Below are positions 53,153-60,316 of a DNA stretch of 64,000 nt, one piece after another; position 1 is the stretch's first letter; every line of letters begins with the position of its first letter. The notes beneath the pieces were generated by a model. That model was not told where the DNA came from, did no database searches, and saw only the letters and a list, made by a program, of their open reading frames with translations. A program made the position numbers and the translations under genes. This DNA comes from an uncultured bacterium (GTDB lineage: Bacteria > Chloroflexota > UBA5177 > JANWHV01): assembly GCA_963827235.1 (NCBI GenBank), contig CAWHAE010000019.1, forward strand, positions 160,001-224,000, read 5' to 3'.

Positions 53153-54442
53153 GTGAGTTCGAGCGCAAGAGCCGACATCAGCCTTGGCGAGGCACGCGCC
53201 CTGGCGGTGGCCGCGCAGTGCCTCGCCGCCGTACCGGTTGCTCCGGTCGACAGCATGGCTGTACTGCGCACGATCGACCGTCTCGGCGTGCTGCAGGTCG
53301 ACACCATTAGCGTGGTCGAGCGTTCGCAGTATCTCGTGCTCTGGAGCAGGCTCGGCAGCTACGATCCGGGCTTGCTCGACTCTCTGCTCTTTCCGCGGCG
53401 GCTGGTGTTTGAGTGCATGGCACCGGTCGCCCTGATCGCTCCCATGGCAAACTACCGCTTCTACCAGCCCGGCATGCTGGCCGCCGCGGAGGAGGGCCGG
53501 CGGCGATCGCGGGAGTGGCTGGCAGAGCACCCGGACGCTCTCCTGGCGACGCTCGAAGCCGTGCGCAGCCGCGGTCCCATGGCTTCCGCCGACTTCGAGC
53601 GACCGGACGGAGCTACTCGAAGCGCGCCGTGGGACTGGCATGGGTCTAAACCGAGCCGGCGGGCACTCGAGATGCTGTACGGTTCAGGTGAGCTCATGGT
53701 GCACAGCCGTTGTGGCGGGCAAAAGCTCTACGACCTCCGTGAGCGCGTGCTGGCGGAGGCCTTCGGCGATGAGGCGCCGCGCGACGACGATTTGCCGGGC
53801 GCCGCCGAGCGCGTCGCATTCTTCGCCGCCCATGCCGCCGAGGCGCTGGGCATCGTGATTCCGGCCTGGTTGTGGGAGTACCACGCCCTGCGACCGGCGC
53901 GCGGCTCGGGTAAGAATCACCGTGACTCCGCCTTGGCTGCCCTGGAGGACTTGGTCGACGCCGGCAGGATGATCAGGGTCTCCGTAGATGGCCTCGAGGG
54001 GCCGGCCTACATGGCGTCGTCGCTGCGCGATTCGCTCAGCCGGCGGCATCGAAAGCGGGCTCCGGCGCGCACGACCTTGCTTTCGCCCTTTGACAGCCTG
54101 ATCTGGGATCGTGCGCGGACCCGAGCCCTGTTCGGCTTCGACGTCTGCTTCGAAGCCTACGTCCCGCCTGCCAGGCGCAGGTTCGGCTACTACTGCCTTC
54201 CGATCCTCCATGGGAACAGGCTGGTCGGCCGACTGGACCCCAAGATGGATCGAGCCTCTCGCCGTCTTCTGGTGCGGGCGGCCTACCTCGAGCCGGACGC
54301 GCGTATCGACGAGGCCCTGCTCGACGGGGTCGCAGCGGCCCTGCTTGACCTGGCGCGTTTCCTGGGCGGCAGCGGAGTGCACCTGGGCGATCGTGGCAGC
54401 GCCGAGTTGATAGAAGGGCTTGCAACGCGCCTGCGAGACTGA
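53153..54442 (+). CDS. ycaQ: YcaQ/AlkZ-family (HTH_42) interstrand-crosslink DNA glycosylase
   Basis: LGVLQVDTISVVERSQYLVLWSRLGSY (QxD catalytic motif), LLSPFDSLIWDRAR, FEAYVP..RRRFGYYCLPIL. Confidence 0.88.
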   Translation: MSSSARADISLGEARALAVAAQCLAAVPVAPVDSMAVLRTIDRLGVLQVDTISVVERSQYLVLWSRLGSYDPGLLDSLLFPRRLVFECMAPVALIAPMANYRFYQPGMLAAAEEGRRRSREWLAEHPDALLATLEAVRSRGPMASADFERPDGATRSAPWDWHGSKPSRRALEMLYGSGELMVHSRCGGQKLYDLRERVLAEAFGDEAPRDDDLPGAAERVAFFAAHAAEALGIVIPAWLWEYHALRPARGSGKNHRDSALAALEDLVDAGRMIRVSVDGLEGPAYMASSLRDSLSRRHRKRAPARTTLLSPFDSLIWDRARTRALFGFDVCFEAYVPPARRRFGYYCLPILHGNRLVGRLDPKMDRASRRLLVRAAYLEPDARIDEALLDGVAAALLDLARFLGGSGVHLGDRGSAELIEGLATRLRD

Positions 54443-54743
54443 CCCTCCCCGCCGGTGCCTGTTTCACCGACTCTTGAGTATAGGGCCTCGGCATCAGCGC
54501 TGCCGGCTCTCTGAATCTGGTTAAGTACCGGCACCGTAGGTGATAAGTGGGGGCGCTCCCCGGCCGGCTCGCCCAGCCGGCGCCGTCGTATGGAGAGAGG
54601 GGGTTGCTCAAACGACTGGTAGAACGCGGCGACATCACGGTCTGGGGCCGGCGTCGTCGCCGGTCTACGTTGCCTTGCCTGCTCTCGGCGCGCCTCTCGT
54701 TGCGCGCCGAGGCGATCGAACCACGAATCAACGGAGGTACAGA

Positions 54744-55247
54744 ATGACACTTGCGCCTCGCTGCGCGGCTACTGTCGGCGCGCTCGCCTTGGCCTTATCC
54801 GTCTATGGCGTTTCGGCGGCTGCGCCGGCCACTACCACCTTTCCCCTGCGCGGCACGCGGATGGCGAGCATGGCGCATGGGTTGGCGCAGATCACGCAGA
54901 CGGCGCCGGGCGACTACATGGTGACCGTCACGGTCGACAAGTTGCCCGCCCCGGCCACCTTGAAGACGACCCCCATCCGCCATGCCTACGTCGCCTGGGC
55001 GCTGGTCATGTCGAGCCAGCCGCGCTCAACCAGCAGCCAGAAGCGGCCGGCCGGCGCCCGACCACAGCTCGGCCCCCTGACGCCCATACGGCTTCATGCC
55101 ACCACGGCAGGTACCTACACGGGCAGCGGCGTGGTTATGATGAAGAGCGAGCCGTCCATCTTGATCACTGCTGAGGTGAGCGAGACGGTCGACAAGCCTG
55201 CCACGCCGTTGTGGGGCGTCTTGATTGGACGTCCGGGCAGTATGTAA
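54744..55247 (+). CDS. Secreted hypothetical protein (anti-sigma C-terminal/CHRD-like beta domain)
   Basis: Signal peptide, LPAP...AYVAW...ILITAE...PATP; GGAGG RBS. Confidence 0.65.
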   Translation: MTLAPRCAATVGALALALSVYGVSAAAPATTTFPLRGTRMASMAHGLAQITQTAPGDYMVTVTVDKLPAPATLKTTPIRHAYVAWALVMSSQPRSTSSQKRPAGARPQLGPLTPIRLHATTAGTYTGSGVVMMKSEPSILITAEVSETVDKPATPLWGVLIGRPGSM

Positions 55248-55304
55248 GAAGCGCTCTCCTCCCGGAGTTCGTGTTCGCAGCGCCCTGGGGATCGCGGCGA
55301 CCAC

Positions 55305-55340
55305 CCGTGCCTCGAGCTCAGGCTCGAGGCACGGCTGTTT
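55305..55340 (+). terminator. Intrinsic terminator-like hairpin
   Basis: CCGTGCCTCGAGC-TCAG-GCTCGAGGCACGG (13-bp perfect stem) followed by CTGTTTCTT. Confidence 0.6.
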
Positions 55341-55441
55341 CTTCCACGCCAGGTGCGTGCTGGTCATAGCTGCTCACGAAAGTCTCCCTCGACACTGACG
55401 AAATCCCCTTCGATCAGTAATCAGACTTGGCCATTCCCATG

Positions 55442-55450
55442 TGGTATGAT
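55442..55450 (+). promoter_or_regulatory. Extended -10 promoter of the metG leader
   Basis: TG-G-TATGAT; predicted +1 falls on the A of ATG 55458. Confidence 0.65.
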
Positions 55451-55457
55451 CGTAGCC

Positions 55458-55553
55458 ATGCAGACGAGCCTGATCTCCACGACCGCCGCCGGAGCGCTGA
55501 GCATGCCTATGTCCATGCGCCGGCCTCGTCTGTGCGCGCGAGGCGGGCCGTAG
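55458..55553 (+). CDS. Leaderless Met-sensing leader peptide (31 aa) of metG
   Basis: MQTSLISTTAAGALSMPMSMRRPRLCARGGP*: ATG codons at 55503, 55509 and 55515; tandem TAGTAG stop in a hairpin loop. Confidence 0.7.
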   Translation: MQTSLISTTAAGALSMPMSMRRPRLCARGGP

Positions 55554-55581
55554 TAGCCCGCCCGGCCGGTACCCAGAGCAG

Positions 55582-55620
55582 ACGAGGCGCCTTGAGTGAT
55601 CGAGGCGCCTCGTGTTTTTT
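55582..55620 (+). terminator. Attenuator terminator upstream of metG
   Basis: ACGAGGCGCCTTGA-GTGA-TCGAGGCGCCTCGT (14 bp, one G-U) plus GTTTTTT; 5' arm can instead pair with GCCTCGTCTG (55523-55532). Confidence 0.85.
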
Positions 55621-55631
55621 GTGGAGGACCA

Positions 55632-57392
55632 GTGAGCGAGCATGTCGGCGTCTTCGTAGCCTGGCCGTACGCGAACGGTGACATCCATCTCGGGCACGTA
55701 GCCGGCGCCTATCTGCCGGCTGACATCTTCGCTCGCTATCATCGGCTGCGCGGAGACCACGTGCTGATGGTCAGCGGAAGTGACGCTCATGGAACGCCGG
55801 TCAGTCTACAGGCCGAGGCCGAAGGTGTCTCGCCGCGCGTCTACTTTGAGCGCTTCCACCACCGGTTCCTGGACGACTTGCTTCACCTGGGTGCCGGCTT
55901 CGACCTCTTCACACACACGAACACCGATCTGCATGCCGCCGTGGCGCAGGACATTTTCCGCGCGTTGCATGAACGGGGCCTGATCCGGCCGGGCACGACG
56001 ACCCAGCTCTATTGCGAGAAACACCGTCGGTTCCTCCCCGATCGATACGTGGAAGGGAGCTGCCCGCTCTGCGGTGAATCTGGGGCACGGGGCGATCAAT
56101 GCGATGCCTGCGGGCACACACTCGACGCAGCGAATCTCGTCGAGCCCCGCTGCAGGCTGTGTGGATGTTCCCCGATATCGCGTGAGAGCACGCACCTGTT
56201 CCTCGACCTCCCGGTCTTCCAGGACGGCATCGCCGCCTACATCGAACGGCAGGCGCATTGGCGCCCTAACGTGCTCAACTTCGCGCGCAACTACGTCGGC
56301 GGCGGGCTGCGGCCGCGCGCCGTCTCACGCGATCTCGACTGGGGCATTCCGATCCCGGTGCCCGGCTATGAGGGAAAGGTGATGTACGTCTGGTTCGAGG
56401 CAGTTATTGGCTATCTCTCAGCCAGCATGGAGTGGGCGCGGACTCGGGGCGAGGCGGCCGAGTGGCAGGCGTGGTGGCGTAGCCCGGATGCGCGCGGTTA
56501 CTACTTCATCGGCAAGGACAACATCCCCTTCCATGCCGTAATCTGGCCTGCCGAGCTCATGGGCTGGGACTCGAGCCTGGCGCTGCCCTACGACATCCCG
56601 GCCAACGAGTTCCTCACCCTGGAGGGCAGACGGCTCAGCACCAGCCGCCGGTGGGCCGTCTGGCTGTCCGACTATTTGCAGCGCTATGGGCCGGACCCTC
56701 TTCGCTACTATCTGACCGGCATTGCGCCGGAGAGCGGAGACAGCGAGTTCACCTGGCAGGGCTTTCTCGATCACAACAACAACGAGCTGCTGGCTACGTG
56801 GGGCAACCTGGTCCAGCGCGTGATTAGCTTCGCGCACAGCCGCTGGGAAGGGCGAGTGCCGGTTCCAGGCGCGCTGGACCGGCGAGACGACGCGATGCTC
56901 GCTGAGATCGAGCAGGGATTTGCCACGGTCGGCGACCTCTATGCTCGCGTCAGGCCGGCCGCCGCGCTTCGAGAGGCCATGGCCCTGGCGCGCGCCGTGA
57001 ATCGGTACTTGGACGACAAGGCACCGTGGTTCCAGATTAGGCAGGATCGGGCGGCGGCTGCCACCACGGTCTTCGTGGCACTGATGGCCATCGACTCTCT
57101 GAGCATTCTTCTGGCGCCCGTGCTGCCGTTCACGAGCGAGCAGACACGCCGGTACCTGGGCTACGATCGGCCGTTGTTCGGCAGCCTGCGGGTCGAACAG
57201 AGCGAGGAAACAACGCAGCCCCACGCGGTGCTTCGTTACCTGCCTCACCCGGAAGAGGGGGTAATAGACCGCTGGCAGCCGAGCGCGTTGCCTGCCGGCC
57301 GTCCGCTCGAGCGGCCGATGGTGCTTTTCGAGAGGCTCGACCAGTGCATCGTTACCGAGGAGCGCGCTCGGCTCCGCGCGTGGTCTGGATGA
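55632..57392 (+). CDS. metG: Methionine--tRNA ligase
   Basis: AWPYANGDIHLGH (HIGH), SGSDAHG, zinc knuckles, SRDLDWG, YVWFEA, GKDNIPFH, RLSTS (KMSKS equivalent); GGAGG RBS, GTG start. Confidence 0.96.
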   Translation: MSEHVGVFVAWPYANGDIHLGHVAGAYLPADIFARYHRLRGDHVLMVSGSDAHGTPVSLQAEAEGVSPRVYFERFHHRFLDDLLHLGAGFDLFTHTNTDLHAAVAQDIFRALHERGLIRPGTTTQLYCEKHRRFLPDRYVEGSCPLCGESGARGDQCDACGHTLDAANLVEPRCRLCGCSPISRESTHLFLDLPVFQDGIAAYIERQAHWRPNVLNFARNYVGGGLRPRAVSRDLDWGIPIPVPGYEGKVMYVWFEAVIGYLSASMEWARTRGEAAEWQAWWRSPDARGYYFIGKDNIPFHAVIWPAELMGWDSSLALPYDIPANEFLTLEGRRLSTSRRWAVWLSDYLQRYGPDPLRYYLTGIAPESGDSEFTWQGFLDHNNNELLATWGNLVQRVISFAHSRWEGRVPVPGALDRRDDAMLAEIEQGFATVGDLYARVRPAAALREAMALARAVNRYLDDKAPWFQIRQDRAAAATTVFVALMAIDSLSILLAPVLPFTSEQTRRYLGYDRPLFGSLRVEQSEETTQPHAVLRYLPHPEEGVIDRWQPSALPAGRPLERPMVLFERLDQCIVTEERARLRAWSG

Positions 57393-57399
57393 TGATCGG

Positions 57400-57719
57400 A
57401 CCCCGCCCCTGCCCACGCCGCCGGTGACGCCGATGCCACGCTGCACGACAAGGTGCTGGCCCGAAACGGTTACTCTTGGCGCTCGACCGATAGGGACAGC
57501 GACGGAGGAGCTCACTGGACGCTGGCGGCGGGCGGTATTGCGGTCCCTCCCGCTCCGGGCGCCTTTCCCAGCGACGTGAGCGGCAGTTACTTCTACTCTC
57601 CCGCCTCCGGCTGGACCAGCGTCGTGATCGGTCCCGGACCGCAATTGAGCGGTCTCTACCACTCGATTGATGGCGGCCATGCCTGGAAAGCCCGGCATCC
57701 GTTGTTTGCCGCAGCCTGA
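57400..57719 (+). pseudogene. Fragment of a BNR/Asp-box repeat protein
   Basis: WRSTD(RDSD)GGAHW and LYHSIDGGHAWK Asp-boxes; no RBS or signal peptide. Confidence 0.5.
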
Positions 57720-57972
57720 TCCACGGTGCGGTGACGGCAGTGCCTGTGCATGGTGAACGCCCCGTGCTGTACCCTGTGGAGAAGGCGGCGATTCGCGGCT
57801 CGCCGGTCATTCGGTCGTTGGCAGCGCTCGAGTGCGGGCCGCGGCCGCGCGAGCAGACGAGGGACCCCGCGAGCGGGTACACGGCGGCGAACCGCGGGTC
57901 ATCAATGGCTACGACCATGACAGTAGTTGCTCACCGGCACGATGCCGGCGATCGCGCGTTGCGGAGGGATGC

Positions 57973-58047
57973 ATGCGCCTGCTCGCTCCCAGCCGCGACG
58001 ACGTAGTGCGCATTCGGATCGCACCACGGCGCGCCGCGCGCCGGTAA
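57973..58047 (+). CDS. Candidate branched-chain amino acid leader peptide of ilvD (24 aa)
   Basis: GGAGG RBS; MRLLAPSRDDVVRIRIAPRRAARR*; hairpin 58086-58106 just before the ilvD RBS. Confidence 0.35.
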   Translation: MRLLAPSRDDVVRIRIAPRRAARR

Positions 58048-58123
58048 ACCGGGCCCGGCTTGGCGAGCGCACATAGATTGGGCACCGGGACGTTCCTGGC
58101 GTCCCGTGTGAGGGGAGATGGAC

Positions 58124-59839
58124 ATGTCGACGGTTACCACGCGGCAAATGCGCTCAGACACGATCAAGAAGGGCTTCGAGCGTGCACCTCATCGGGCACT
58201 GCTCCGCGCTACCGGCGTGATCCGGGACGAGAAGGACTTTGAGAAGCCGTTCATCGCCGTGATCAATAGCTACGTGGACATTATTCCCGGTCACGCCCAC
58301 CTGCAGGAGGTCGCCAGGACCGTGAAGGCTGCCATTCGCGCGGCGGGTGGCGTGCCCTTCGAGTTCAACACCATCGGCGTGGACGACGGTATCGCCATGG
58401 GACATATCGGCATGAAGTACTCGCTGCCCAGCCGCGAGCTGATTGCCGATTGCGTGGAGACGGTGATCGCCGCCCACGCCTTTGACGGCATGATCTGTAT
58501 CCCGAACTGCGACAAGATCGTGCCCGGGATGCTGATGGCTACCATGCGCTTGAACATCCCCACTATCTTCTGCTCCGGCGGGCCGATGCGAGCCGGGCGC
58601 CTGGCCAGCGGGGCCAAGGCAGATCTGATCACCGTGTTCGAGGCGGTCGGCGCATACGCGCAGGGCAAAGTCAGCGACGAAGCGCTGCTGGAGCTGGAGC
58701 AGAAGGCCTGTCCCTCCTGCGGCTCGTGCTCCGGCATGTTCACGGCCAATTCCATGAACTGCCTGTGCGAAGCGCTGGGCATTGCTCTTCCCGGCAACGG
58801 CACCATCCTGGCCAGAACGCCGGAGCGTGAGGAGCACTACCGCCGCTCGGCCGCGCGCTTGCTGCATCTGGTCGAAGAGAACGTCCGCCCGCTGGACATC
58901 ATCACGCCGCCGCGATCGACAACGCCTTCGCCCTGGATATGGCGATGGGAGGCTCGACCAACACGGTGCTGCACACGCTGGCTCTCTGCCACGAGGGTGG
59001 GGTGGACTACCCGCTCGAGCGGCTGAACGAAGTCGCGGCGCGCGTGCCGTACATCTGCAAGGTGTCGCCGGCCTCCGCGAAGGTGCACATCGAGGACGTG
59101 CACCGCGCCGGCGGTATCAGCGCCATTCTGCACGAGCTGAGCCGCCGGCCCGGGCATCCTGCACCTCGACGTGCCGACGGTGACCGGCAAGACGCTGGGC
59201 GAGAACATCGCGCGGCTCTGCCGTCGCCGATTCCGCGGTGATTCGGCCGCTGGATGAGCCGTTCCAGGACCGCGGCGGACTGACGGTGCTCTTCGGCAAC
59301 CTGGCGCCTGATGGTGCCGTCGTCAAGTCCGGGCGCCATCGACGAGTCTGCCTGGAAGTTCCGCGGTGCGTGCCGCATCTATGAGAGCGGGGAAGCAGGC
59401 CCAGGCCGCTATTCTGCGCGGCGAGGTAGTGGCCGGCGATGCCGTGGTCATCCGCTACGAGGGACCCAAGGGCGGTCCCGGCATGCAGGAGATGCTCGGG
59501 CCGACCGGCGCCCTGGCGGGCATGGGCTCGGCGACGTCGGTCGCGTTGCTGACCGACGGACGCTTCAGCGGCGGCAGCCGCGGCATGGCCATCGGCCACA
59601 TCTCGCCGGAAGCGGCAGCCGGTGGACCCATCGCCGCGCTGCGCGACGGGAGACATCATCGTCCATCGACATCCAGGCCTGCCGGCTGGACGTCGAGCTG
59701 AGCGAAGACGAGCTGAGCCGTCGCCTCAAAGAGGCGCGACCGCCCGAGCAGCGTGCTGCCTGGTCGCTGGCTAAGGCGCTATCGGAGCCTGGTGACCTCG
59801 GCAAATACGGGGGCGGTACTGCGCGACCCGGACTACTAA
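58124..59839 (+). CDS. ilvD: Dihydroxy-acid dehydratase, with about 7 frameshifts in the 3' half (probable sequence errors)
   Basis: [94 protein letters not shown] across several frames. Confidence 0.9.
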
Positions 59840-59841
59840 AG

Positions 59842-59965
59842 GCAAGCCACGCCGGGACCCACGGTGGCGTCGAAGGCGCACTCGATGCTCCAGGATTCAT
59901 CCTGGGCAGAATCATGTCCCGCCAAGCACGGAGTTCACTCTGCCCCTGCGGGTTCCACGTTGGCC
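59842..59965. repeat. REP-like dispersed repeat, copy B (uninterrupted)
   Basis: Begins 3 bp after the ilvD stop; contains hairpins CCAGGAT-TC-ATCCTGG and GAGT-TC-ACTC; colinear with copy A. Confidence 0.8.
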
Positions 59966-60316
59966 TGGGTATAGGTGTGCCGGGGATGCTCGCGCTGCCC
60001 TGGGACCACCTGCGTCGCCGCGGAGCCACGCGGGCTGCTCCTCGAGGTGTGCCGCAGTCTGCGAGCCGGCCTTCCCGATAGCGTCTCCCGCCCGCGCGCC
60101 GCTGTGGTCTGTAGATAGCGACCGAGCCCGTTTGTCGCGCCGGCCACGGCCCGCGCCGCGGCACCACGCAGAAAGGCGTCCGGCTGGTGCTGATGCACGA
60201 GGGCAAGTGCAGGACACTGGGGAAGGTCGTAGGGGGTGTCCGCCGCTCGCGCGGCCGGTGTGCCCGCATGGGGCGCGGGCCATCCGGTCTCGAGCGTGCC
60301 GGGAAGCGGCAGACAA

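Follow-up and report, generated by a model that had tools for sequence, protein, structure and literature searches.

The question raised by this locus is whether a short open reading frame (sORF) rich in methionine codons, lying directly ahead of a methionyl-tRNA synthetase gene (metG), acts as a leader peptide that adjusts metG transcription to the supply of charged tRNA-Met. Textbook cases of leader-peptide attenuation concern Trp, His, Leu, Thr, Phe and Ile/Val; for methionine, T-boxes, SAM riboswitches or protein regulators are the controls normally invoked. The locus lies in a 64,000-nt stretch of DNA that we refer to as the window and, judged by its sequence, it is a real leader-peptide attenuator: very probably a ribosome-mediated transcription attenuator in the style of trp and pheST that monitors how much charged elongator tRNA-Met is available, and that most likely switches metG on when charged Met-tRNA is short. 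The parts of such a device had been proposed in an initial annotation, and all of them (the extended -10, the 31-aa sORF, the MPMSM cluster, the pairing segments, the hairpin and the terminator) lie where it had placed them:

55305-55334, plus strand: terminator hairpin of 13 bp that ends the upstream 235-aa ORF and sets the 5' limit of the metG control region
55442-55450, plus strand: extended -10 element TGGTATGAT (TG-n-TATGAT), read from the sequence; the -35 is weak
55458-55553, plus strand: leader peptide ORF encoding MQTSLISTTAAGALSMPMSMRRPRLCARGGP, 31 codons plus TAG, read from the sequence
55461-55468, plus strand: segment 1, CAGACGAG, with 8-9 bp of complementarity to segment 2
55503-55517, plus strand: control codons, ATG at 55503, 55509 and 55515 (MPMSM), read from the sequence
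55523-55532, plus strand: segment 2, GCCTCGTCTG, within the sORF, able to pair with segment 1 or segment 3
55542-55562, plus strand: apical hairpin GGCGGGC/GCCCGCC, with the TAGTAG leader stop in its loop, from folding
55579-55588, plus strand: segment 3, CAGACGAGGC, the exact complement of segment 2 over 10 bp
55582-55620, plus strand: intrinsic terminator, with a 14-bp stem (55582-55595/55600-55613), loop GTGA, then G and T6 (55615-55620)
55623-55628, plus strand: Shine-Dalgarno (SD) sequence GGAGGA, ahead of the metG GTG start at 55632, read from the sequence
55632-57392, plus strand: metG, from GTG to stop, encoding a 586-aa methionyl-tRNA synthetase (MetRS) of the two-knuckle type, identified by Pfam

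Just 7 nt separate the extended -10 from the leader ATG at 55458, and the leader mRNA is predicted to be leaderless, with its start codon at or adjoining the 5' end of the transcript. A consensus promoter scan found no two-hexamer promoter at the leader, so the promoter call is based on the extended -10 and its conservation in homologues. Three Met codons fall within 5 codons of the 31-codon ORF, at distances of 17, 11 and 5 nt from segment 2, and the leader stop is directly followed by a second in-frame TAG at 55554-55556. Segment 3 has two alternative uses, either as the antiterminator strand opposite segment 2 or as the lower 5' arm of the terminator, which has a dG of -27 to -28 kcal/mol; segment 1, through its pairing with segment 2, may serve as an anti-antiterminator and/or as a pause hairpin.

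These parts suggest the following scheme. Transcription would start about 7 nt past the extended -10, so that the RNA begins with the AUG of the leader. Segments 1 and 2 would pair first, in a long hairpin that a 70S ribosome loading at the 5' AUG would melt. When Met-tRNA is plentiful, the ribosome would pass MPMSM and segment 2 and reach the stop codon in the apical loop, where it would sit between segments 2 and 3; segment 3 would then pair with segment 4, the terminator would form and RNA polymerase would halt at T6, just ahead of the metG ribosome-binding site. When Met-tRNA is scarce, the ribosome would wait at the first or second internal AUG with segment 2 exposed ahead of it, and the exposed segment 2 would capture segment 3 in a 10-bp antiterminator around the apical hairpin, so that no terminator forms and metG is transcribed. 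In this scheme we infer the transcription start, the translation of the leader, the stalling at its Met codons and the direction of the response; a look-up of sequencing runs for 55300-56500 listed none, of RNA or otherwise.

Is the RNA capable of the folds that the scheme calls for? The minimum-energy fold of 55455-55635 consists of the 1:2 helix, the apical hairpin and the terminator, with a z-score of -3.53 (0/200 shuffles as stable). In the naked RNA the 1:2 state (-53.9 kcal/mol) and the 2:3 state (-55.8 kcal/mol) are near-isoenergetic and 1:2 is made first during transcription; the modelled gap of about 2 kcal/mol neither supports nor excludes a default ON state in the absence of translation. 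With a ribosome placed at Met1 or Met2, the free RNA folds into the 2:3 antiterminator (-41 kcal/mol), whereas placing Met3 in the A site leaves just part of the antiterminator helix (-27.9 kcal/mol). The third Met codon, 5 nt from segment 2, is closer than classical geometry allows, and a ribosome waiting there would, by the size of its footprint, occlude some of the antiterminator strand, so that the productive stalls are probably those at the earlier Met codons alone.

An ATG-rich stretch, a terminator and a few complementary words might also have come together by chance, since GC-rich sequence offers many such words. Indeed, the 8-nt complement of segments 1 and 2, taken alone, arose in 149 of 5000 dinucleotide shuffles, and is weaker than the 10-nt match between the sORF and the terminator 5' arm (16/5000). 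Met clusters, defined as at least 3 ATG within at most 5 in-frame codons, occur in the 8-Mb source genome at 24.7 per Mb per strand (395 clusters in 355 ORFs), with roughly 0.007 expected per 300-nt leader. A stop within 40 codons together with a terminator within 130 nt is found for a single one of the 355 Met-cluster ORFs, the metG leader. The listed set of features is more than chance: no other site in the genome combines them, and the one that does belongs to metG. Given this rarity, the shuffle result for the 10-nt complement and the conservation in homologues and other lineages, a fortuitous arrangement is hardly credible.

The homologues come from metagenome contigs. Among 71 metagenome loci the 15 best were inspected, and six of these (L221, L222, L223, L224, L242 and L243) carry the same leader, upstream of MetRS genes whose products are 60-73% identical to the MetRS of the window; since the L224 leader is identical to that of L223, the six contigs yield five distinct leaders. 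All seven loci of the window type have TGnTAnnnT at a near-constant distance from the ATG, 7 nt in six cases and 6 nt in one, a spacing that supports the leaderless start suggested initially. The homologous leader peptides are 29-39 aa long, with 3-6 internal Met on alternate codons. Across the window-type loci the last Met codon always ends 5 nt short of segment 2, and the leader stop codon again falls within the apical loop; segment 3 follows the stop at 25 nt in six of them, the exception being L242 with 15 nt. The reading frame is uninterrupted, and an alignment read by eye shows that indels in the ORF are multiples of 3. From this agreement we take the leaders of the six contigs to be true homologues of the window leader; as anticipated, the orthologous leaders contain Met-rich sORFs and preserve the same helices.

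Pairing across the six aligned leaders is close to complete in all four helices: 98.3% of cells in helix 2:3 (36-54% when slid), 93.8% in helix 1:2, 96.6% in the apical hairpin and 90.5% in the terminator, against 33-54% in the slid-partner control over the four helices. RNAalifold independently predicts antiterminator 2:3 from the alignment which, together with the exact 10-nt complement, bears out the antiterminator that had been proposed for segments 2 and 3. The anti-antiterminator proposed for CAGACGAG agrees with the preserved 1:2 pairing, from which its role would follow, and L242 retains segment 1 in a different reading frame. Within segment 2, CCTCGTCTG shows no change in 6/6 leaders in spite of encoding PRL and of a MetRS identity of only 60-73%; the conservation of segment 2 extends to synonymous sites. 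The expectation of covarying helices was borne out in part. Compensatory changes are present in the apical hairpin (C-G to U-A in L223) and at one pair position of the terminator (A-U in four sequences, G-C in two), whereas the antiterminator varies through one-sided wobble changes only, with no compensatory change among the six sequences (five distinct), and in this set changes on both sides of a pair are not significant against shuffle controls (164/500 to 237/500).

Met leaders also precede metG in other lineages, where they appear equal in architecture and different in sequence. In the Chloroflexota family f8 (Anaerolineae-like), at least 3 ATG within 8 codons precede metG at 27/32 loci, with a terminator located by a terminator finder in 26 cases and by eye in one. 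Of 30 f8 leaders analysed, 27 have the ATG 6-9 nt past the -10, in further support of a leaderless start, and the stop lies 18-31 nt before the terminator. Segment 2 in f8 equals the terminator 3' arm and shows 88% pairing vs 30-46% when slid; the pairing is kept, with few changes on both sides. Outside f8, Met leaders were found at 6/91 loci (all three f52 loci, one f79 locus and two f32 loci), and an Ardenticatenaceae locus (L181) has the same leader architecture. Met clusters at two further loci, L178 and L182, were rejected because they arise from GATGAT runs, read out of frame, in the part of an upstream gene that codes for its acidic tail. A cross-lineage duplex-energy matrix was noisy, with the own pair first in its row in only 5/10 cases. 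Upstream of the closest MetRS relatives with genomes (66-70% identity), from Thermomicrobium, Thermalbibacter and Sphaerobacter (Thermomicrobiales) and from Ardenticatenaceae, no Met leader or terminator was found, which tells against the attenuator reading, and these relatives thus provide no comparative information. A search of 401 Chloroflexota genomes for the pattern CCTCGTCTG-N35-65-GACGAGGC gave 20 matches outside the source genome, compared with 23 for the reversed control; the 20 strings, judged by eye and out of context, do not look leader-like, and the window type was not found elsewhere in this sample.

At L181, metG begins 148 nt past the terminator, with a promoter-like TTAGAATGG between the two. 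Such a layout would suit an sORF that encodes a small protein with a function of its own, the hairpin being its terminator and metG being promoted separately. In the window only 11 nt lie between the T-tract and the metG start, leaving no room for a promoter; the peptides are unconserved between lineages except for Met, and the synonymous-site conservation in segment 2 likewise argues against an independent protein, a reading that we regard as extremely unlikely.

The ORF could instead be incidental to a switch made of RNA alone or thrown by a bound protein: a divergent T-box-like element, or autoregulation by MetRS through CAU mimics of the tRNA-Met anticodon. The C that precedes several of the ATGs does create CAU triplets, and T-boxes occur in Chloroflexi, according to PMC3766115. 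However, the initial view that no T-box or SAM riboswitch is present was upheld by an Rfam scan of 54800-56200, which gave no match to the T-box (RF00230), SAM or any other riboswitch family at E<=10; its eight weak matches include sX11 and sX12, which cover the terminator hairpin only and score far below gathering. Further evidence against an incidental ORF is that the ATGs share one frame, that start and stop are conserved and indels are multiples of 3, that the spacing between -10 and ATG is fixed, and that some f8 ATGs have no preceding C. We therefore consider an RNA-only or protein-binding switch very unlikely, and a translated leader remains the preferred reading.

It could still be asked what a translated leader would sense. 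Instead of elongator Met-tRNA, it might switch the terminator in response to the rate of leaderless initiation (fMet-tRNA/70S), to general translation speed, to an antibiotic or to nascent-peptide arrest (MPMSM contains Pro). Initiation at a 5' AUG itself requires Met-tRNA(fMet), the window type and f8 alike have Pro and Ser codons interspersed among the Met codons (ATGCCYATGKCCATG), and the 5-nt gap sets the last Met codon too near segment 2 for a classical stall. Against this, Met richness is the only peptide property common to the independent lineages, no conserved arrest motif was seen beyond it, and the controlled gene is always metG. Sensing of such other signals is, in our judgement, unlikely, and charged elongator tRNA-Met remains the signal that we favour.

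What is new here is the nature of the controlled gene: an extra MetRS, horizontally acquired and located in a variable island of a genome whose native MetRS has an unusual HIGH motif. The window MetRS matches tRNA-synt_1g (PF09334, E 7e-142) and the MetRS anticodon-binding domain (PF19303), and has an intact HLGH; its KMSKS equivalent, LSTSR, is close to the FSTSR, ISGSR and LSSSR of clade members. None of the other 20 genomes in the class has this copy. The native MetRS of the genus have PS(A/T)GS in place of the HIGH signature, the copy in the source genome (G000) reading PSAGS. It is possible, though doubtful, that the attenuator gates a horizontally acquired back-up MetRS that would be expressed only upon a ribosome-sensed shortage of Met-tRNA, that the leaderless device could read both initiator and elongator tRNA-Met, and that it represents an undescribed, widespread class of Met-specific attenuators. 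Examples of what might trigger a back-up enzyme are a native MetRS that is too slow or one hit by a natural MetRS inhibitor; in the back-up reading, initiator tRNA-Met would be sensed by ribosome loading at the 5' AUG and elongator tRNA-Met by the internal AUGs.

A metG attenuator built on Met codons would extend the attenuator class to a further amino acid, and its several versions of unrelated sequence within Chloroflexota would mean that it has been invented or exchanged repeatedly. It would also offer a small and testable example of a leaderless mRNA under attenuation, in a phylum that, to our knowledge, has almost no regulatory genetics. The leader would mark an inducible second MetRS, an arrangement as seen for back-up or inhibitor-resistant synthetases, and could help annotators of these uncultured bacteria to recognise metG regulation and to predict start sites.

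How does the window leader compare with known systems? The E. coli attenuators pheM-pheST, trpL, hisL, leuL and thrL combine an ORF of cognate codons with mutually exclusive 1:2, 2:3 and 3:4 pairings and an intrinsic terminator. The window leader resembles them in its short cognate-codon ORF, in the same set of exclusive pairings and in the final intrinsic terminator, and it resembles pheST also in that the controlled gene is the cognate aminoacyl-tRNA synthetase. It differs from them in its use of Met, whose codon doubles as start codon, in its apparently leaderless mRNA that has no SD, in its stop, which is placed in the loop of a hairpin enclosed by the antiterminator, and in a last control codon that comes within 5 nt of segment 2; the sequences are dissimilar, no Rfam leader family was matched, and the phylum is Chloroflexota. 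T-boxes and SAM riboswitches, by which Met genes are usually controlled at the RNA level, likewise place a terminator/antiterminator decision upstream of a Met-related gene, but the sensor proposed here is a translated ORF and not a tRNA- or ligand-binding fold.

The closest parallels are the f8 Met leaders, which share the leaderless start 6-9 nt past the -10, the Met cluster, a segment 2 within the ORF and metG downstream. Their helix sequences (GGCTGTCC/GGACAGCC) are unrelated to those of the window, and in most f8 leaders with the GGCTGTCC terminator segment 2 lies 10-13 nt past the last Met, compared with 5 nt in the window. Moreover, in one f8 genome (G025) no MetRS-sized match was found besides the controlled MetRS, whereas the window MetRS is a second copy. 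As the initial annotation had supposed, a Met-leader attenuator of metG was not found in our literature search, which did not extend to the 14-case list in table S9 of PMC4007540 or to Lopatovskaya et al. 2010 (Mol Biol 44:128); the available portions of PMC4833913, PMC2965389 and PMC3766115 do not mention metG. A predicted class of leaderless leaders of synthetase genes does exist: in Deinococcus deserti, leaderless leader peptides were predicted in 2014 upstream of aminoacyl-tRNA synthetase and amino-acid genes (de Groot et al., PMC4007540), in 14 cases, of which the main text, as far as available, names only cysS and trpEGD. The D. deserti leaders belong to another phylum and come with transcription start site data, whereas the window leader is known from its sequence. 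As far as that source describes them, they are like the window leader in that the transcript is taken to begin at the AUG of a short peptide with many cognate residues, ahead of a synthetase gene (cysS), with attenuation as the proposed mechanism.

All the elements that the initial annotation had described between 55442 and 55632 are present exactly where it had put them, as we found on re-reading the sequence. The leader is organised as follows:

55442-55450: extended -10 element TGGTATGAT, with 7 nt between it and the ATG at 55458
55458: start of the 31-codon leader ORF (MQTSLISTTAAGALSMPMSMRRPRLCARGGP), which ends at a TAG at 55551, directly followed by a second TAG
55461-55468: segment 1, CAGACGAG
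55503, 55509 and 55515: in-frame ATG codons Met1, Met2 and Met3, the putative control codons
55523-55532: segment 2, GCCTCGTCTG, exact complement of segment 3
55542-55562: apical hairpin GGCGGGC/GCCCGCC, with the leader stop codon in its loop
55579-55588: segment 3, CAGACGAGGC, exact complement of segment 2
55582-55613: intrinsic terminator of 14 bp, followed by G and T6
55623-55628: Shine-Dalgarno (SD) sequence GGAGGA of metG
55632: GTG start of metG, encoding a 586-aa methionyl-tRNA synthetase (MetRS; Pfam PF09334, E 7e-142)

Judged from sequence comparison, it is highly likely that these elements form a genuine and conserved leader-peptide attenuator that reads Met codons, in which pairing 1:2 would be the anti-antiterminator, 2:3 the antiterminator and 3:4 the terminator. 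The minimum free energy fold of 55455-55635 combines pairing 1:2 with the apical hairpin and the terminator, at a z-score of -3.53, and none of 200 shuffles folds as well. Of 5000 dinucleotide shuffles, 16 reached the 10-nt complementarity of the sORF to the 5' arm of the terminator, and 149 the 8-nt match of segments 1 and 2. Scanning the whole 8.0-Mb assembly for clusters of at least three ATG in five or fewer in-frame codons yielded 395 clusters in 355 ORFs (24.7 per Mb per strand); 165 of these ORFs have a stop within 40 codons, and exactly one, the leader before metG, combines such a stop with an intrinsic terminator within 130 nt.

Of 21 species-representative genomes of its own class, one carries the window MetRS, the genome holding the window (G000), and the others have no close relative of it. 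Scanning metagenome contigs gave 71 loci; upstream DNA was inspected for the best 15 by identity, and the same leader precedes metG in six of them (L221, L222, L223, L224, L243 and L242; MetRS identity to the window enzyme 60-73%); since the L224 leader is identical to that of L223, there are five distinct homologues. All seven window-type loci, the window included, share TGnTAnnnT followed after 7 nt (6 nt in L242) by an ATG that lacks an SD, an ORF 29-39 codons long in which the start is followed by 3-6 further Met codons, mostly at every second codon, exactly 5 nt from the last Met codon to segment 2, a stop codon inside the apical hairpin loop, a distance of 25 nt between that stop and segment 3 (15 nt in L242), and the order terminator, SD, metG. 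In the MAFFT alignment, indels within the ORF have lengths divisible by three, as judged by eye. CCTCGTCTG is unchanged in all six rows despite coding for Pro-Arg-Leu. Near its 5' end, L242 retains CAGACGG but reads it in another frame, which speaks for a constraint on segment 1 at the RNA level.

On the same alignment, paired cells amount to 93.8% for helix 1:2, 98.3% for helix 2:3, 96.6% for the apical hairpin and 90.5% for the terminator stem, compared with 33-54% when the 3' partners were moved by 1-3 columns. L223 shows a compensatory change, C-G to U-A, in the apical hairpin, and one pair of the terminator shows another (A-U and G-C); variation in the antiterminator is wobble only. The consensus that RNAalifold returned without an input structure contains the antiterminator 2:3 with 11 pairs, plus an inner helix and the apical hairpin. 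Of the Met-rich sORF and covarying helices that the initial annotation expected in related metG leaders, the sORF and the pairing are thus kept, and covariation was not significant in shuffle controls with five distinct sequences, so that the evidence is kept pairing rather than statistical covariation. In six of six window-type leaders, RNAalifold also has CCUCGU, the last part of the terminator 3' arm, pairing with GGAGG of the metG SD (55607-55627), which could mask the SD once the antiterminator has formed.

The same design recurs elsewhere in Chloroflexota. In the Anaerolineae-like family f8, whose sampled genomes carry this MetRS type in 60 of 61 cases, 27 of the 32 metG loci examined carry a Met leader (at least three ATG in eight codons). 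The finder called a terminator in 26 of these 27, and in the last, L064, one whose T-run is interrupted was recognised by eye. Five loci fall short of this number of Met codons (L055, L072, L073, L076 and L080); two are present in L076, and the terminator is retained in L072 and L073. The start codon lies 6-9 nt past a TAnnnT hexamer in 27 of 30 analysed leaders, and in most TTGACA is matched at 5-6 of 6 positions, 16-18 nt from that hexamer. Most f8 leaders with a GGCTGTCC terminator carry GGACAGC or GGGCAGC in the ORF, 10-13 nt past the last Met codon; this word equals the terminator 3' arm and is complementary to the 5' arm GGCTGTCC. This f8 helix is 88.3% paired in 27 leaders versus 30-46% when slid.

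Outside f8, a Met cluster with a terminator is found in 6 of 91 loci of the phylum sample (L037 in family f79; L048 and L050 in f32; L114, L124 and L139 in f52). Three f61 loci (L085, L089, L093) have just two Met codons (VTMVM or AMVM) and then two successive hairpins, the first complementary to the sequence directly 3' of the Met codons. The 74 named loci with sufficient upstream DNA include one clear Met leader (L181, Ardenticatenaceae) and a probable one (L157); L178 and L182 were rejected, their Met clusters being artefacts of an acidic tail. The complementary words vary by lineage (GTGGGAG/CTCCCAC, GCCAG/CTGGC, CGCCTGCGGTC/GGCCGTGGG), with complementarity intact in each. Among genomes, the closest MetRS relatives are those of Thermomicrobiales and Ardenticatenaceae (66-70% identity), and no such leader lies upstream of their metG.

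Two further observations concern other metG genes. In Candidatus Dojkabacteria (CPR; L189, MetRS identity 37%), metG is preceded by an ORF, MKTLNNSKLMMVMMMQNL, with five Met codons in a stretch of eight, and the finder called no terminator there. Six class-type metG genes (L016, L018, L024, L027, L029, L030) are preceded by a promoter-like TTGAC...TAnnnT and a short GC hairpin whose T-run ends 28-74 nt before the metG start, with neither a Met cluster nor an Rfam family upstream; this hairpin may be a different control element.

The window contig is, on sequence grounds, native to the genus; an AlkZ-like gene at 53153-54442 and the ilvD gene from 58118 on stand in the same order on contig C7 of the congeneric genome G001, at 73% and 82% DNA identity. 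The stretch between them (54443-58117) holds a 235-aa ORF without a Pfam match, the leader and metG in G000, and three unrelated ORFs in G001, which places the cassette in a variable island and makes its acquisition probable. A second MetRS-like gene of G000 (contig C9; L305 229-1854, minus strand) is common to the genus at 76-91% identity. In each of the four genus members seen (G000 and L306, L307, L308), this native enzyme reads PS(A/T)GS in place of the class I signature HIGH, where 16 other Chloroflexota enzymes of its type, including L026 from the unpublished genome G018, have PH(I/L/V)G(H/F). The window MetRS has HLGH and the KMSKS-equivalent usual for its clade. The predicted attenuator probably controls an acquired second metG of G000.

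Next to the cassette, measured against the intact ilvD of G001 (573 aa; L292 4987-6708), ilvD (58118-59840) is read in four or more different frames. Either it is a pseudogene or the assembly contains erroneous indels; in the second case, other parts of the window could also carry small indels. Directly past it, a dispersed repeat of about 140 nt (59837-59975) has more than 20 copies at 67-88% identity on many G000 contigs, and two short matches, in G001 and G002.

In good agreement with the earlier view that neither a T-box nor a SAM riboswitch can be recognised before this metG, cmscan against Rfam 15 (E<=10, 54800-56200) returned neither, nor any leader family; its eight weak matches are all far below gathering, and two are the terminator hairpin alone. 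Gathering-threshold Rfam scans of 36 related metG loci gave three tRNAs and nothing else. As the annotation had also supposed, full-text literature searches yielded no characterised Met-leader attenuator for metG. The passages searched in three comparative papers (PMC4833913, PMC2965389 and PMC3766115) do not mention metG. For Deinococcus deserti, de Groot et al. (PMC4007540) predicted leaderless leader peptides before aminoacyl-tRNA synthetase genes, and the synthetase case displayed in the main text is cysS. Within the literature searched, a methionine version of the leader-peptide attenuator is apparently unpublished.

We folded the RNA that a stalled ribosome of usual footprint size would leave free. 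A ribosome with Met1 or Met2 in its A site lets the complete antiterminator form (-41 kcal/mol), one with Met3 there a partial one only (-27.9 kcal/mol), and one at the stop codon the terminator alone. Hairpin 1:2 is the fold obtained for the nascent 5' part (-29.1 kcal/mol). As long as segment 4 has yet to be made, states 1:2 and 2:3 have almost the same energy (-53.9 vs -55.8 kcal/mol), so the order of synthesis and the position of the ribosome would decide between them. Transcription start, leader translation, stalling and the direction of regulation are all predicted here. The logic is that of the classical four-segment attenuator, from which the window leader differs in its predicted leaderless start and in having its stop codon within the antiterminator loop, because of which a terminating ribosome would be positioned between segments 2 and 3.
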